Shown here one piece after another: positions 23,030-28,156 of a stretch of 64,000 nucleotides of DNA. Below the pieces are notes generated by a model. It was not told where the DNA came from. It worked only from the letters and a program-made list of their open reading frames with translations, and made no database searches. Origin of the DNA: Escherichia coli (GTDB lineage Bacteria; Pseudomonadota; Gammaproteobacteria; Enterobacterales; Enterobacteriaceae); the NCBI RefSeq assembly GCF_048403405.1, contig NZ_CP183129.1. One strand, 5' to 3'. Within the stretch, counting starts at the first letter, position 1, and every line of letters begins with the position of its first letter. Position numbers and translations under genes: made by a program.

Positions 23030-23412
23030 AATTCGGTTACTCCTTTACGAACGTTTTCGATATCGCTTTGCGTACCCATGAGTTCAAAGCGGTACAGCCA
23101 CGGCACGCCGCATTTCCGGGCTATCACATCTCCGGCGCGGCCATACGCCTCACCAAAGTTGCGATTACCCGAAGCAATAACGCCGCGCAGCAACACCCGG
23201 TTGTGCTCGTTGTTTAAAAAGCGAATGACCTGTCGTGGCACTGCGCCAGCCGTACCGCCGCCGCCGTAAGAGGGCACGATCAGGATGTAAGGCTCGTCTA
23301 CCTGAATCCGTTCCCGCTCATTGAGCGGGATGCGCACCGCGGGCAGACCTAAACGTTCGATAAAACGCTGCGTGTTTTCGGAGCTACTGGAAAAGTAGAC
23401 GAGCTGGCTCAT
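23002..23412 (-). CDS. nrdI: Flavodoxin-like protein NrdI
   Basis: 136-aa [24 protein letters not shown]..; overlaps nrdE start by 28 nt. Confidence 0.94.
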
Positions 23413-23654
23413 GCACTGGCCGCGTGTGGCGCTGGATGCAGACGATTGATCATGTCCGGGCGGAAACCAGACCAGCTAAGATCGCCAGCAATCACTACCG
23501 GCAACTGACGAAAGCCCTGAGCACGCAGCGCTTCCGCCGCTTCAGGAACGCGATCGACATTAATCATTTCAAAGTCAAAGCCCCGGTTTTCCATCGCCCG
23601 TTTGGTGGCGTGGCACTGAACGCAATCGTTACGAGTGTAAATAGTAATGCGCAT
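23409..23654 (-). CDS. nrdH: Glutaredoxin-like protein NrdH
   Basis: 81-aa ORF with CVQC redox motif ([22 protein letters not shown]..). Confidence 0.94.
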
Positions 23655-23727
23655 GATTCGTATTTCCGTTTAAAATGAAGATACGGCGCGATGATACGCG
23701 TCGGGTTGTCTCTCTGTTGATACAGAG

Positions 23728-23772
23728 ATACTAGATGTAGTTGAAAAAATATTCAACCATACAAGATATGGG
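23728..23772 (-). promoter_or_regulatory. Candidate tandem NrdR boxes upstream of nrdHIEF
   Basis: Minus-strand reading gives cccatatcttgtatgg and caactacatctagtat, two 16-bp palindrome-like boxes 29 bp apart, 74-118 bp upstream of nrdH; resembles the NrdR box consensus but is imperfect. Confidence 0.3.
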
Positions 23773-23862
23773 AATTTTAGATTGATTACGCCACCGATGA
23801 ATGGCTCAACGGGGTAGGGGATTTTGTGTTTTTTTGCCGGGCGAATACCCGGCATCAAGAAG

Positions 23863-24294
23863 TTACATCCGCATGGAAACGGCCAGACGGTTAAAACAAT
23901 TCATCAGCCCGATGGCAAACGTTAAGTCGCTGATCTCTGCTGCGCTGAAATGCTCAAGCAAAGGCTGATAAACCTCGTCTTCCGCATGGGTTCTGGCAAT
24001 TTCGGTTACCGATTCCGCCCATGCCAGCGCCGCCCGCTCGCGTTCATCAAAATGATGGCTTACGCGCCAACCTGCCAGGGCGTCCAGTTTGTGCTGTGGC
24101 ACGCCGGATTTGCGCAATGCTTTGCTGTGCATCTCCAGACAAAATGCGCAGCCGTTGATTTGCGAGACGCGCAAATAAACTAACTCCATCAACGTGGTAT
24201 CCAGCGTGCTATTTTCCAGTGCCGTTTTGGCCTGCACTAGTGCGTTATACACTGCCGGGCTAAGTTCGTAGTAAGGCTGACGTAATGTAGTCAT
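23863..24294 (-). CDS. AhpD-like / carboxymuconolactone decarboxylase family protein
   Basis: 143-aa ORF with aggaga SD; contains CxxCxxxH (GCAFCLEMH), the AhpD-type redox motif. Confidence 0.8.
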   Translation of the reverse strand: MTTLRQPYYELSPAVYNALVQAKTALENSTLDTTLMELVYLRVSQINGCAFCLEMHSKALRKSGVPQHKLDALAGWRVSHHFDERERAALAWAESVTEIARTHAEDEVYQPLLEHFSAAEISDLTFAIGLMNCFNRLAVSMRM

Positions 24295-24381
24295 ACAGTT
24301 TCTCCTCTTATTAACGCCCGCAATGTAGCACTATAATGGACTGCTAAAGAGAGCCATAAATTACCTAAAAAAGCAGACCAT

Positions 24382-25716
24382 ATGCCGCGCTATCAGGATA
24401 TCGCCCGTCAGTTAAAAACGGCTATTGAGCAAGGGGAACTGAAACCCGGCGCAAGGCTGCCTTCAAGTCGTACCTGGTCGCAGGAGCTGGGGGTGTCTCG
24501 ATCCACTGTCGAAAATGCGTATGCTGAGCTGGTGGCGCAAGGATGGCTGATCAGGCGGGGACAGGCTGGCACATTTGTCAGTGAGCGGATATATCCGCAA
24601 CAATCTACTGTACAAGTTGTAGCTTTTGCCGGTGAAAGTCAGCAACCGTTGCCATTTCAAATGGGATTACCCGCACTCGATCTCTTTCCGCGAGAGCTGT
24701 GGGCGCGGGTGATGGGGCGTCGCCTTCGTACCCAGACGCGCTTTGATTTGGCGTTAGGCGATGTCTGCGGTGAGGTGGCGTTGCGCGAGGCAATAGTTGA
24801 TTACTTACGCGTTTCACGTGGGATTGATTGTCAGCCAGAGCAGGTCTTTATCACTCACGGTTATGCGGCCTCAATAGCTTTAATTCTGCACGCGCTGGCG
24901 AAACCGGGAAACGGGATGTGGATAGAAGATCCCGGCTTTCCACTGATTCGCCCGATTGTCACTCGCCATGATGTGGAAATTTTGCCTGTGCCGGTTGATG
25001 ACAATGGACTGGATATCACAAGCGGAATACAAAATTATCCTGATGCGCGTTTTGCCCTGATAACACCAGCACACCAAAGTCCGCTGGGTGTGGCGCTCTC
25101 TTTAGCGCGCAGGCATCAGATACTGGAATGGGCAGATCGTAGTCAGGCATGGATTATTGAAGATGATTATGACAGTGAGTTTCGCTATCACGGTAAGCCG
25201 TTACCGGCGTTAAAAAGTCTCGACGCACCGCAGCGGGTAATTTATGCCGGAACATTCAGCAAAGCGCTATTTCCTGCATTGCGCTGTGCGTGGCTGGTGT
25301 TGCCGGTGAAGCAAATTGCACAATTCCGCCACCAGGCGTCACTGGCTCCATGTGCGGTACCTGTTCTATGGCAGAACACACTGGCAGACTTTCTTCGCGA
25401 GGGGCATTTCTGGCGGCATCTGAAGAAAATGCGTCAGCATTATGCTCAACGTCGGCAATGGATTGAGCAAGCGTTGACGCAGCAAGGATTTCAGGTTGTG
25501 CCGCAGAAAGGTGGTATCCAGATGGTGATCAGAATGATAGGCGATGATATTGCCCATGCGCGTAAAGCCAATGCTGCAGGCCTTGCGGTGCAGGCACTTA
25601 GCGACTGGCGTATCCGTTCAAGTGGGGAAGGTGGATTACTGCTCTCGTTTACTAATATCGTTAACGAAGGTATGGCGCGACAGGTAGCACAACAATTACG
25701 TAAAGCCTTAAGCTAA
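24382..25716 (+). CDS. MocR/GabR-type transcriptional regulator (GntR HTH fused to PLP-dependent aminotransferase-like domain)
   Basis: 444-aa ORF; N-terminal GntR-family wHTH (..SSRTWSQELGVSRSTVENAYAELVAQGW..) and large C-terminal aminotransferase-fold domain (..IYAGTFSKALFPALR.. with the expected Lys); divergent from the AhpD-like gene. Confidence 0.82.
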   Translation: MPRYQDIARQLKTAIEQGELKPGARLPSSRTWSQELGVSRSTVENAYAELVAQGWLIRRGQAGTFVSERIYPQQSTVQVVAFAGESQQPLPFQMGLPALDLFPRELWARVMGRRLRTQTRFDLALGDVCGEVALREAIVDYLRVSRGIDCQPEQVFITHGYAASIALILHALAKPGNGMWIEDPGFPLIRPIVTRHDVEILPVPVDDNGLDITSGIQNYPDARFALITPAHQSPLGVALSLARRHQILEWADRSQAWIIEDDYDSEFRYHGKPLPALKSLDAPQRVIYAGTFSKALFPALRCAWLVLPVKQIAQFRHQASLAPCAVPVLWQNTLADFLREGHFWRHLKKMRQHYAQRRQWIEQALTQQGFQVVPQKGGIQMVIRMIGDDIAHARKANAAGLAVQALSDWRIRSSGEGGLLLSFTNIVNEGMARQVAQQLRKALS

Positions 25717-25743
25717 AAAACCCCGAAGCCAGGCTTCGGGGTT
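25715..25743. terminator. Bidirectional terminator between the MocR-type gene and ygaM
   Basis: aaaaaa-ccccgaagcc-a-ggcttcgggg-tt hairpin between convergent genes. Confidence 0.6.
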
Positions 25744-25772
25744 AAAGACGCGTATTTATTATCATTTTTGCA

Positions 25773-26102
25773 CTACGATTTGCGCATGCTTAACAGTGCG
25801 CCGATAAAAATACCTACCGCAGCTGCTGTACCCACGCTACACCAGGGTCTTTCACGAACAAAAGAATCCGCGCAGCCAACGGCATCGCGCGCGGCTTGCT
25901 GGACGCGAGTACGACCATGCATTCGCGCCCTGGTTTCTTTCAGTAGAGCCTGCGCTTTACTGCGTGCGGCTTCAGCTTCCCCTTTAGCGTCGCTGCCCCA
26001 GGACTTCAATACAGATTCGAGGCTATCAGCTAATTGATTGACATCATTCTGGATATCCTGCACGCCATCATCAACGTCGTTGCGGTTCGGTCGGTTAAAC
26101 AT
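25773..26102 (-). CDS. ygaM: DUF883/ElaB-family membrane-anchored protein
   Basis: ORF track 25773-26114; ATG at 26102 has a gggga SD; C-terminal TM anchor (..VGTAAAVGIFIGALLSMRKS). Confidence 0.85.
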   Translation of the reverse strand: MFNRPNRNDVDDGVQDIQNDVNQLADSLESVLKSWGSDAKGEAEAARSKAQALLKETRARMHGRTRVQQAARDAVGCADSFVRERPWCSVGTAAAVGIFIGALLSMRKS

Positions 26103-26253
26103 ATGATCCCCCATTAGAATTCGATGTAATTTTCAGTGTAGACCATAATTTTCTTAACTGAGGTTCATCGCGGCTTTATGGACTTTTCTGAAAGCGTTGT
26201 GAATGCGCAATCAGGTAAGGTAGGCCCGCGGTTGATAATAACGAGGATCAAAT

Positions 26254-26634: not shown

Positions 26635-27084
26635 TCAGGCTTTTACCTGCTGGTAACGGCTGACTTTAAACAGTCGGCGGCAATAATCGAGGAAGTAGCC
26701 ATAAACCGCCCCCATCAACATCGAAACAACGATGTTTGAACTGACCGCCGCCATAATCTGATGCCAGTCTGCGCCCACCACTAACAAGATCGCCACATAC
26801 ACCGGTGACTGGAACGTCACATAAGCCATGATATCCGCCAGATTTTTTATCCAGCCCGACGGGCTAACTTTGCGTGCTGCGCGCATAAACAGATCGCGGT
26901 ACATACCGTATGGCCATGCAATTAAGATGTTCACCGGAATCGCTACCAATCTGGAATAAAAAGACTGTTCGAAGCTCATTCCGGAGAGGAAAACTTCAAT
27001 ACACATGTTCACGACAGAACAGTAAACAACCATCGCGAACGTATCTGCAACTGCATGACGCAAGCGTGACTGCGGTGAGAACAT
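26635..27084 (-). CDS. alaE: L-alanine exporter AlaE
   Basis: ORF track 26635-27195; ATG at 27084 has an aaggag SD and gives a 149-aa membrane protein [21 protein letters not shown].. Confidence 0.88.
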
Positions 27085-27195
27085 GCTAATGCTCCTTAAT
27101 AAAAGCGTAATGGGATGTGAATGGAGATGAAAGCAGTGGATCTCATTGCCATCTGCATTTTCGCATAGCGTATATCGCTGGCTATGACTAATCAA

Positions 27196-27751
27196 TTAGT
27201 GAAAAATTTTTATTTAAACTGTTTTTGTAGATAAAATATTCCGTAACGGCGCGTTTTTTGTACATTGTGGATTTTTACATGCCGATATGGTTTATTTTAA
27301 ATTGAATCAATTAGATATGATCCTGCCTTTAATTACACTAATGAAAGTTTGGGGGTGAGATAACGCTATAAGCGTAGAGAATTCGGTGTATGTCGTGACC
27401 GGGTCATTTTCAGCATTTTTTATGCCAGAAAATGTACATTGACAGCAGAAAGCACCAGTGAGGGGTGTTTTCATTTATTCGGTTAAATTGCATTTTTATT
27501 CACTTTGGTTTTGTCAGGCTTGCGGAATTAGCGAGCAGAGAGCGCCGCTCTGTTCACCAATAACCGAAATTACTCATCAAAATGGCTAATATATAATCTT
27601 GAAATTATTCTGAGAGTTTCAGAAAATAACAGCTGAAATAATCTCGTGCAGGACTGTAAATAGATTAAATTTTGTGGAAATATAATAAGTGATCGCTTAC
27701 ACTACGCGACGAAATACTTTTTTGTTTTGGCGTTAAAAGGTTTTCTTTATT
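27196..27751 (+). promoter_or_regulatory. AT-rich stpA upstream regulatory region (divergent from alaE)
   Basis: 556-bp AT-rich non-coding stretch with many A/T tracts upstream of stpA; a silencing/curved-DNA regulatory region is expected for an H-NS paralogue. Confidence 0.45.
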
Positions 27752-28156
27752 ATGTCCGTAATGTTACAAAGTTTAAATAACATTCGCACTCTCCGTGCGA
27801 TGGCTCGCGAATTCTCCATTGACGTTCTTGAAGAAATGCTCGAAAAATTCAGGGTTGTCACTAAAGAAAGACGTGAAGAAGAAGAACAGCAGCAGCGTGA
27901 ACTGGCAGAGCGCCAGGAAAAAATTAGCACCTGGCTGGAGTTGATGAAAGCTGACGGAATTAACCCGGAAGAGTTATTGGGTAATAGCTCTGCTGCTGCA
28001 CCACGCGCTGGTAAAAAACGCCAGCCGCGTCCGGCGAAATATAAATTCACCGATGTTAACGGTGAAACTAAAACCTGGACCGGTCAGGGTCGTACACCGA
28101 AGCCAATCGCTCAGGCGCTGGCAGAAGGTAAATCTCTCGACGATTTCCTGATCTAA
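27752..28156 (+). CDS. stpA: H-NS paralogue StpA (DNA-binding nucleoid protein)
   Basis: 134-aa [36 protein letters not shown].. with C-terminal [12 protein letters not shown]-binding motif. Confidence 0.95.

Follow-up and report, generated by a model that had tools for sequence, protein, structure and literature searches.

The locus lies in a 64-kb stretch of Escherichia coli DNA, the whole of which is referred to here as the window, and consists of two genes placed back to back with a gap of 87 bp: cmd, for a protein of 143 residues from the carboxymuconolactone decarboxylase (CMD) family, and mocR, for a regulator of 444 residues (Table 1). An earlier note on this DNA had described a divergent AhpD-like/MocR pair between nrdH and ygaM, and both reading frames are present with the positions and lengths it gave; its observation is confirmed, and its interpretation is supported in part. 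From cmd to nrdHIEF, downstream on the same strand, the distance is 208 bp. The hairpin folded downstream of the cmd stop codon lacks a U-tract (an A-run follows it on the transcribed strand), and the terminator scan called no terminator for cmd. The mocR stop codon is followed at once by the terminator hairpin of ygaM, which forms the right end of the segment missing from K-12-like genomes and is still found in the empty site.

Table 1. Features of the cmd-mocR locus, with positions in the window
Feature	Position	Strand	Basis or remark
nrdH	23409-23654	-	flank on the cmd side
Presence/absence segment	23770..25714	.	replaced by 73 bp in K-12-like genomes
Hairpin downstream of cmd stop codon	23835..23854	-	RNA fold, z = -2.9
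cmd, CMD/AhpD-like protein of the PA0269 type, 143 aa	23863..24294	-	ORF list, Pfam, NCBIfam, structure matches
Divergent control region, 87 bp	24295..24381	.	
Candidate -10 of cmd, TATAGT	24330-24335	-	by eye, from sequence and conservation
Candidate -10 of mocR, TATAAT	24332-24337	+	by eye, from sequence and conservation
Putative operator box 1, ATGGACTGC, left inverted-repeat arm	24336..24344	+	enteric alignment
Putative operator box 2, GAGAGCCAT, direct repeat of box 3	24349..24357	-	24 bp upstream of box 3
Putative operator box 3, GCAGACCAT, right inverted-repeat arm	24373..24381	-	abuts mocR start codon
mocR, MocR/GabR-type regulator, 444 aa	24382..25716	+	GntR winged helix-turn-helix (wHTH) and aminotransferase-like PLP domain
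ygaM terminator hairpin	25719..25743	-	terminator scan
ygaM	25773-26114	-	flank on the mocR side

The cmd product matches the Pfam CMD family (PF02627, E 5e-21) and scores 54.9 bits with the NCBIfam model of the AhpD core domain (ahpD_dom, cutoff 27.8). The redox motif that had been reported as intact reads C49-A-F-C52-L-E-M-H56, a complete CxxCxxxH. The protein thus carries the set that marks the AhpD-like/CMD family, namely an upstream glutamate, the CxxC pair and a histidine 3 residues past the second cysteine, and its catalytic-type residues are E37, C49, F51, C52 and H56. C49, C52 and H56 are conserved in all 64 alignable linked homologues, and the dN/dS ratio (0.03-0.07, about 0.05) indicates purifying selection. 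Full-length structure matches were obtained with Atu0492 (2gmy) and with Pseudomonas aeruginosa PA0269 (2ijc/2o4d, E 3e-31). Residues E36, C48, C51 and H55 of PA0269 align with E37, C49, C52 and H56 (PMC3141380), and four of the five proton-relay residues (Glu, Cys-x-x-Cys, His) are kept, whereas Tyr50 of PA0269 is Phe51 in cmd. The pairing with a MocR regulator is also common to both, as PA0269 adjoins PA0268; the PA0268 group, with a regulon of COG2128 and COG1917, is however a MocR group distinct from the enteric regulators (PMC5320631).

AhpD of Mycobacterium tuberculosis has the CxxC-plus-His motif and the core of the CMD fold in common with the cmd product, but the motif is located in the N-terminal portion of the 143-aa chain and not in the C-terminal part as in the 177-aa AhpD (PMC3141380), ahpC is not adjacent, and the score with the AhpD subfamily model is far below the cutoff (TIGR00777, 30.9 bits vs 191.95). 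An assignment as bona fide AhpD was therefore rejected. The name gamma-carboxymuconolactone decarboxylase (PcaC) was rejected as well, because no PcaC family appears among the NCBIfam matches and the neighbours are nrdH and mocR. The protein, PA0269-like with a predicted AhpD fold and a CxxC dithiol, is most likely a thiol-dependent reductase or a weak peroxidase. Weak H2O2-reducing activity is all that was shown for PA0269, the physiological substrate of which is not known (PMC3141380), and a link of cmd to oxidative stress could be drawn by analogy only, from this activity and from the family resemblance.

The mocR product, described earlier as a regulator with a GntR-type HTH and an aminotransferase fold, shows both domains in Pfam (GntR PF00392, residues 4-66, E 1.4e-17; Aminotran_1_2 PF00155, residues 126-386, E 1.8e-25). 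It aligns end to end with Bacillus clausii PdxR (7pq9, E 1e-62) and with Bacillus subtilis GabR (4n0b, E 6e-55; also 4tv7). The lysine predicted to bind PLP, on which the assignment as a MocR regulator had been made to depend, is in place: in the structure alignment K294 falls on GabR K312, and D261, Y263 and R301 fall on D279, Y281 and R319. D261, Y263, S293 and K294 are conserved in 78 of 79 relatives, and the Schiff-base lysine together with the PLP-anchoring residues is conserved in 74-78 of the 79. The GntR-type wHTH, the aminotransferase-like domain of fold type I and the PLP site with its anchors place the protein in the MocR/GabR subfamily, and dN/dS of 0.08-0.11 (about 0.1) is indicative of purifying selection.

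The likeness to GabR, which represses its own gene and, given its effector, activates the divergent one (PMC10450172 and established knowledge), covers the wHTH and the aminotransferase-like domain with its matched PLP residues. In GabR, however, R207 holds the carboxylate of GABA, and this position is Leu188 in the mocR product, so that no effector can be transferred by homology, and a transfer from GabR was considered and rejected. Nor is the target an aminotransferase operon, and the operator is unlike that of GabR. The PLP lysine and the overall architecture are shared with B. clausii PdxR too. That protein controls pdxST with PLP as the effector (PMC10450172), whereas mocR faces a CMD gene and no pdxST, with ATGGNC as its putative box sequence.

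A search of the spacer for MocR-type direct or inverted repeats, as the earlier note had proposed, yielded three conserved boxes, which form a putative operator of the type ATGGNC-N10-(A/G)GCCAT-N18-GNCCAT. Boxes 1 and 3 are inverted and boxes 2 and 3 are direct, placed upstream of the regulator's own gene and separated by whole helical turns (24336-24381). Two direct boxes with one inverted box are the commonest MocR layout (PMC5320631), found also in the PdxR operator studied by cryo-EM (PMC10450172). The core of the spacer is conserved across the 24 aligned enteric sequences, where all three boxes show invariant bases, ATGG and CT of box 1 being invariant in all 24 and GCCAT of box 2 in the same alignment. 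Between the window and O157 the spacer is identical at 87 of 87 bases, while the synonymous divergence (dS) is 0.41 for mocR and 0.087 for cmd; in E. albertii the identity is 96.6%. Outside the enteric group, the equivalent of box 2, (A/G)GNCCA(T/A), occurs at the same +16 offset in loci of Pseudomonas, Burkholderiales, Bradyrhizobium and Sphingomonas, and the offsets of 16 and 24 bp are common to E. coli, Bradyrhizobium, Sphingomonas and a Rhodospirillaceae genome.

Of the 79 related loci, 32 have the exact outer repeat, ATGGNC-N34-GNCCAT, in the 300 nt upstream of mocR; the other 688,613 nt of those loci hold a single match, and the 64-kb window has one occurrence where 0.06 are expected. 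The remaining 47 loci lack the exact form, many of them having versions with one mismatch or with a different spacing. The candidate -10 hexamers of the two genes overlap (24330..24337), ACTAT(A/G)AT being conserved in the enteric alignment, and the last two bases of TATAAT are shared with box 1. No full, canonical sigma-70 promoter was called in the spacer by a consensus scan of 23650-25800, since none of the -35 hexamers there matches at 4 of 6 positions; where the promoters lie, and whether regulation is positive or negative, are therefore guesses.

The pair is present in 1387 of 5426 complete E. coli genomes (25.6%); its site is the nrdH-ygaM interval in every case, and no plasmid carries it. 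The impression that it is foreign to the K-12 gene order and variable between strains thus holds, and the pair is not universal core content: a K-12-like O16:H48 genome has none at this site. Alignment of the window by BLAST with the O16:H48 locus (L002), together with alignments of the junctions, defined the segment replaced in K-12-like genomes, and the empty site still holds, in diverged form, part of the sequence next to cmd at the left junction. Beyond E. coli, nrdH-cmd-mocR-ygaM is also the gene order of 17 among 21 enteric loci that belong to other genera and species (Citrobacter, Pseudocitrobacter, Cedecea, Shimwellia, Pluralibacter and E. albertii are represented), and it is found in Rahnella too; in all 21 the CMD gene is the immediate divergent neighbour of the regulator. 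More broadly, 60 of the 79 related loci have a CMD homologue at a distance of no more than 4 kb from the regulator. The same regulator and operator occur in Pseudomonas, Burkholderiales and Alphaproteobacteria opposite an operon with genes for a GNAT acetyltransferase, a protein like flavin-dependent NAD(P)H (azo/quinone) reductases and a CMD protein.

A regulatory group of this type has been published. Suvorova and Rodionov (2016) defined 'Spro_3719 - Enterobacteriales' with a predicted regulon of a single COG2128 gene, and its members are STM2803 of Salmonella, CKO_04020, Ent638_0497, ECA2654, a gene of K. pneumoniae MGH 78578 and Spro_3719 (PMC5320631). Like the pair described here, it joins a MocR regulator of Enterobacteriales to a predicted AhpD/CMD (COG2128) target. 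The chromosomal context agrees as well, and the location of STM2804 about 5 kb from stpA (PMC3723669) is consistent with the site of the E. coli pair. Orthology is probable, by way of syntenic loci of Citrobacter and other enteric bacteria, with identities of 62-77%. The E. coli copy itself falls outside the 2016 study, the listed text of which includes no B2 or O157 genome. In the same work the Pseudomonas regulator PFL_2191 was given a regulon of COG2128, COG1182 and PF00583 (PMC5320631), which is the gene set of the operon seen in one of our related loci (L024).

The searchable literature yielded no binding, expression or enzyme data for the locus or its orthologues, no paper was found that joins MocR with carboxymuconolactone decarboxylase, and the orthologue locus tags returned nothing relevant. 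For STM2803/STM2804 only the use as a marker site was found, STM2804::cat having served as a presumed neutral site in mouse competitions with Salmonella (PMC3723669). As a separate observation, z3974, a possible match to a gene of the pair, is listed in a pull-down with salicylidene acylhydrazide from O157.

The earlier note took the pair as possible strain-variable cargo placed between nrdH and ygaM. The presence in about a quarter of the genomes would agree with an insertion in some E. coli lineages, and so would the mocR alleles of the window and O157, the dS of which is far above that of the neighbouring genes and shows that divergent DNA was brought in by recombination here at least once. 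In cmd, however, dS is like that of core genes, the gene order is kept across enterobacterial genera out to Rahnella, and a single site is used by all 1387 carriers. The GC content of the pair (0.51-0.53) is like that of the flanks, and the ORF list and annotation show no integrase, IS, tRNA or terminal repeat next to it; the marks of a genomic island (mobility genes, tRNA or repeat boundaries, odd composition, variable location) are thus missing. Taken with the left-junction remnant in the empty site, these points make acquisition as cargo very unlikely, and they argue that most E. coli lost the pair by deletion. The polymorphism would then represent loss of an ancestral pair, with about 74% of complete E. 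coli genomes carrying the deletion allele. As K-12-like E. coli lost the pair and pathogens did not gain it, the polymorphism should not be taken for a virulence-associated island. Such frequent loss could also mean that the pair is a decaying remnant which no longer works in E. coli, and about 111 carriers (about 8%) do cover less than 80% of it, with a broken regulator; the three of these that were sampled share a 581-bp deletion in mocR, annotated as a pseudogene in RefSeq, and FDAARGOS_1372 is a strain with this deletion. Both reading frames are nevertheless unbroken in 1276 genomes and likewise in O157, E. albertii and other genera, dN/dS is low in both genes (0.03-0.11), the catalytic and PLP residues are conserved, and the conservation of the operator exceeds that of synonymous sites, so that decay is highly improbable. 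The broken regulators and the absence of the pair from most E. coli suggest that its contribution to fitness is small or specific to a niche.

Newer RefSeq annotation calls the regulator PdxR. On that reading it would sense PLP alone and govern the synthesis or homeostasis of vitamin B6, and the CMD protein would be a secondary member of its regulon. The NCBIfam equivalog model supports the name (NF052282, 408.1 bits vs a cutoff of 320), PdxR is slightly ahead of GabR as the best solved relative, position 188 is Leu as in PdxR and not Arg as in GabR, and the three-box operator resembles the PdxR one. Moreover, MocR regulons of B6 metabolism often take in acetyltransferases and peroxiredoxin-like proteins (PMC5320631). 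However, the rhizopine MocR model also scores 353 bits with the regulator, which means that the PdxR model does not discriminate at such a distance. Characterised PdxR proteins adjoin and activate pdxST (PMC10450172), whereas pdxST is next to the regulator neither in the window nor in the 21 enteric loci, where the divergent partner is always the CMD gene, and GNAT, flavin reductase and CMD genes take this place elsewhere. In E. coli, PLP comes from the PdxA/PdxJ route, and the species is not known to have pdxST. In the study from which the PdxR, PdxW and PdxQ groups come, the Spro_3719 group, with its COG2128 regulon, received no name (PMC5320631). A true PdxR is thus unlikely, and the RefSeq name is probably an over-annotation that will spread.

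The evidence as a whole favours a different reading, and we consider it likely that the pair is a conserved chromosomal two-gene regulatory unit, made of a regulator and its probable target, that is ancestral to the nrdH-ygaM interval of Enterobacteriaceae. It is an ordinary unit, already annotated in over a thousand genomes and with the regulator-target link predicted in 2016 for the probably orthologous enteric group, and it carries little weight as a discovery. The suggestion that the MocR protein controls the adjacent divergent gene gains support from the conserved linkage and the conserved operator.

In the proposed mechanism, PLP would be held on K294 of the C-terminal aminotransferase-like domain, with the GntR winged helix at the N-terminus, and a head-to-tail dimer would most likely act on box 1 (ATGGACTGC), box 2 (GAGAGCCAT) and box 3 (GCAGACCAT). 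By analogy with GabR and PdxR, the choice of boxes may switch when the sensor pocket is filled by PLP alone or by PLP linked with an amino compound. As the candidate operator overlaps each of the two putative -10 hexamers and reaches up to the start codon of mocR, the regulator most likely represses itself and controls cmd. The GNAT, flavin reductase and CMD partners seen elsewhere point to redox or xenobiotic detoxification, not to central metabolism.

A more specific proposal, which we regard as quite unlikely, is that a PLP-based sensor of a reactive amine, a hydrazine-like or a carbonyl-type compound induces a thiol-redox detoxification enzyme, and that the system was kept in extra-intestinal (B2-like) and O157 lineages and lost from commensal and laboratory lineages. 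Since cmd lies shortly upstream of nrdHIEF on the same strand with no canonical terminator between them, its induction could read through, which, if true, would couple two stress responses by way of the alternative ribonucleotide reductase operon. The compact and conserved MocR operator-target pair, together with the natural variants in which the regulator is deleted, would offer an easy system for seeking the effector of a widespread MocR group.

The gene cmd, for a 143-aa CMD/AhpD-like protein, and mocR, for a divergent 444-aa MocR/GabR-type regulator, lie between nrdH and ygaM with a gap of 87 bp, where the earlier note had placed them. Its domain assignments were also right: the cmd product is a member of the CMD family (Pfam PF02627, E 5e-21), and the mocR product carries a winged helix of the GntR type (residues 4-66) followed by an aminotransferase class I/II domain (residues 126-386).

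Genes and candidate control elements at the nrdH-ygaM site (window positions)
Feature	Position	Strand	Remark
nrdH	23409-23654	minus	flanking gene
cmd	23863-24294	minus	143-aa ORF (ORF list and sequence)
Candidate -10, TATAGT	24330-24335	minus	near-palindromic partner of TATAAT; points to cmd
Candidate -10, TATAAT	24332-24337	plus	perfect; overlaps box 1
Putative operator box 1, ATGGACTGC	24336-24344		
Putative operator box 2, GAGAGCCAT	24349-24357		
Putative operator box 3, GCAGACCAT	24373-24381		
mocR	24382-25716	plus	444-aa ORF (ORF list and sequence)
ygaM	25773-26114	minus	flanking gene

The pair is carried by 1387 of 5426 complete E. coli genomes (25.6%), always as a single chromosomal copy and never on a plasmid. 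Identity to the window is at least 99% in 1007 genomes and 90-95% in 365, the sampled rows of the latter class being mostly O157:H7 and O55:H7. With a query including 560 bp of flank per side, all 1387 carriers match as one piece-set at this site between nrdH and ygaM; in 4034 further matching genomes only the flanks are covered, and nearly all sampled rows span 1129-1130 bp. In a K-12-like O16:H48 genome (L002) the nrdH-ygaM distance is 247 bp with no gene between, and 73 bp stand in place of window 23770-25714. The pair is thus strain-variable and absent from K-12, as had been suspected, and is not universal E. coli content. The right junction of this empty site is exactly the ygaM terminator hairpin behind the mocR stop codon. 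A remnant of the sequence that adjoins cmd on its downstream side, including ACGGGGTAGGGG, survives in the replacement (L002 771-843, corresponding to window 23770-23830). Against ~98% identity in the surrounding flanks, this remnant has only ~60%, so the deletion allele may be old or imported.

About 111 of the 1387 carriers cover less than 80% of the pair. Three sampled ones share one 581-bp deletion (window 24385-24965; FDAARGOS_1372, L004), which takes out the winged helix-turn-helix and the beginning of the sensor domain and leaves the putative operator and cmd intact. RefSeq marks the rest of mocR as a pseudogene; these strains are natural regulator knock-outs.

When bacterial species were scanned with one genome each, 79 loci encoding relatives of the regulator came up; their synteny was read by tblastn with four window proteins. 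The order nrdH-cmd-mocR-ygaM is found in E. albertii, a second Escherichia representative, Pseudocitrobacter, Cedecea, Pseudescherichia, Shimwellia, Pluralibacter and several 'Enterobacter sp.' genomes, and also in Rahnella, with nrdH only 46% identical; nrdH-cmd-mocR is found in three Citrobacter species. STM2803 of Salmonella LT2 is listed in a regulator group (PMC5320631) to which the mocR product probably belongs, and STM2804, ~5 kb from stpA, fits the same chromosomal site. The GC content across the pair (0.51-0.53) is that of the flanks, and no integrase, IS, tRNA or terminal repeat was found at the pair in the ORF list and annotation. The earlier suggestion of cargo is therefore wrong, since the gene order is common to many enteric genera, the GC is flank-like and mobility genes are lacking. 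The parsimonious reading of these comparisons is that of an ancestral enterobacterial unit, which most E. coli would have lost via one predominant deletion allele.

Between the window and O157 (L003), dS is 0.41 for mocR and 0.25 for ygaM, with 0.087 for cmd and 0.116 for nrdH. In one lineage, a divergent Escherichia donor seems to have supplied the mocR-ygaM side by recombination, the break lying at the control region. O157 also has ~93 extra bases between the mocR stop and ygaM (L003 2718-2866, corresponding to window 25717-25772), which resemble a palindromic element of the REP type and are absent from the window and K-12-like genomes.

Purifying selection acts on both genes, with dN/dS of 0.03-0.07 for cmd and 0.08-0.11 for mocR (comparisons with O157, with E. 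albertii and with the second Escherichia representative). The cmd product scores above the cutoff of the NCBIfam AhpD core-domain model (54.9 against 27.8 bits). Assignment as a true AhpD was rejected (subfamily model 30.9 bits, cutoff 192), and the product is far under the cutoff of every other specific NCBIfam model. The nearest solved structures are P. aeruginosa PA0269 (2ijc/2o4d, E 3e-31, full length) and also Atu0492. PA0269 has a proton relay of Glu36, Cys48, Tyr50, Cys51 and His55, and weak thiol-dependent reduction of H2O2 was reported for it (PMC3141380); the counterparts here are E37, C49, F51, C52 and H56, so that four of the five are kept. The CxxC motif and the histidine are conserved in 64 of 64 alignable regulator-linked CMD homologues.

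Alignments of the mocR product with B. clausii PdxR (7pq9, E 1e-62) and with B. subtilis GabR (4n0b, E 6e-55) run from end to end. GabR residues K312, D279, Y281 and R319 correspond to K294, D261, Y263 and R301, so the PLP lysine, about which the earlier note had asked, is present. In GabR, R207 binds the GABA carboxylate; its counterpart here is Leu188, at a position variable across the regulator group, and the effector is thus not transferable by homology. Older PGAP records in RefSeq name the product 'PLP-dependent aminotransferase family protein', while newer ones give 'pdxR: MocR-like pyridoxine biosynthesis transcription factor PdxR', because it reaches 408 bits on the PdxR equivalog model (cutoff 320). 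The same score speaks for a PdxR-like mechanism, with the product sensing PLP alone. However, characterised PdxR proteins adjoin pdxST and control it (PMC10450172), whereas no pdxST lies beside mocR, and the score on the rhizopine MocR model is nearly as high. The 'PdxR' label is therefore probably an over-call, and sensing of PLP alone is rather unlikely.

In the aligned spacers of the window, of O157 and of 22 enteric loci, the conserved core is CACTAT(A/G)ATGG(A/T)CTG...AGAGAGCCATA...AAAAAGCAGACCAT, in which ATGG-CT, GCCAT and CCAT are invariant or nearly so. Both kinds of repeat for which a search had been proposed are present: boxes 1 and 3 are inverted repeats whose starts lie 40 bp apart, and boxes 2 and 3 are direct repeats at 24 bp with an A-tract in between. 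In 32 of the 79 loci an exact ATGGNC-N34-GNCCAT occurs no more than 300 nt upstream of the regulator gene, with one match in the other 688,613 nt of the loci; the 64-kb window has one occurrence (0.06 expected). The same outer spacing of 40 bp is seen in Pseudomonas, Budvicia, Hafnia, Burkholderia and Herminiimonas, and the 16-bp and 24-bp offsets of the three boxes in Bradyrhizobium, Sphingomonas and a Rhodospirillaceae genome. The spacer is identical to that of O157 at 87 of 87 positions, against dS of 0.087 (cmd) and 0.41 (mocR), and 96.6% identical to that of E. albertii, where dS is 0.55-0.69; it is thus under tighter constraint than the surrounding coding sequence. A pair of direct boxes plus a single inverted one is the commonest MocR operator layout (32% of regulons), and a TGG core is typical of the boxes (PMC5320631). 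The 48-bp PdxR operator seen by cryo-EM (PMC10450172) has the layout predicted here.

No promoter was called in the spacer by the promoter scan, and neither -10 hexamer has a -35 reaching 4 of 6; cmd has a good ribosome-binding site (GAGGAG). For the leftward candidate promoter, box 2 would cover the -35 region, with box 3 upstream of that region. For the rightward one, none of the three boxes lies upstream of the start site, and box 3 directly adjoins the start codon. GabR and PdxR repress their own genes and activate the divergent ones, and the arrangement in the spacer resembles their geometry. By analogy, the mocR product would repress mocR and activate cmd.

Outside enteric bacteria, the regulator usually faces more than a CMD gene alone, with GNAT and/or reductase homologues beside it in 37 of 58 non-enteric loci. 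The divergent operon of Pseudomonas (L024) encodes a GNAT acetyltransferase, a flavodoxin-fold NAD(P)H azo/quinone-reductase-like protein and a CMD protein, in this order; the regulator is faced by GNAT-CMD in Pectobacterium and by reductase-CMD in Azoarcus. In a further set of loci the CMD gene lies behind the regulator on the same strand. Such gene content suggests a small regulon for redox or xenobiotic detoxification, from which enteric bacteria would retain the CMD gene only.

The regulons of Suvorova and Rodionov 2016 give the same picture as our independent reconstruction. Their supplement holds a MocR group 'Spro_3719 - Enterobacteriales' with the predicted regulon COG2128 (AhpD/CMD family), comprising Citrobacter koseri CKO_04020, Enterobacter sp. 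638 Ent638_0497, Pectobacterium ECA2654, a Klebsiella pneumoniae MGH 78578 gene, Salmonella STM2803 and Serratia Spro_3719; Pseudomonas fluorescens PFL_2191 is listed with COG2128, COG1182 (AcpD/AzoR) and PF00583 (GNAT) (PMC5320631). The regulator-target link is therefore already in the literature as a computational prediction, with which the control of cmd by mocR proposed in the earlier note, and predicted here from sequence, agrees. A literature search found no experimental work on any member of the regulator group. The pair is an ordinary MocR-plus-target unit, already annotated and already predicted; the allele break, the natural regulator deletions, the possible nrdHIEF read-through and the 'pdxR' annotation drift are all minor side points. 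The O157 EDL933 protein z3974, which by tag order may be the counterpart of cmd, ECs3533 being ygaM, was among 16 proteins retained on a salicylidene acylhydrazide affinity resin, with Tpx and WrbA; it gave no clear signal in Far-Western analysis (PMC3191033).

Downstream of cmd (23655-23862), no hairpin with a U-tract terminator was found; behind a hairpin at 23835-23854, the transcribed strand carries an A-run. In the window and other enteric genera, cmd has the same orientation as nrdHIEF, the operon for class Ib ribonucleotide reductase 208 bp downstream. Given this orientation, distance and lack of terminator, read-through from cmd into nrdHIEF is conceivable. A strongly AT-rich stretch (GC 0.35-0.38) lies between alaE and stpA at 26900-27800.
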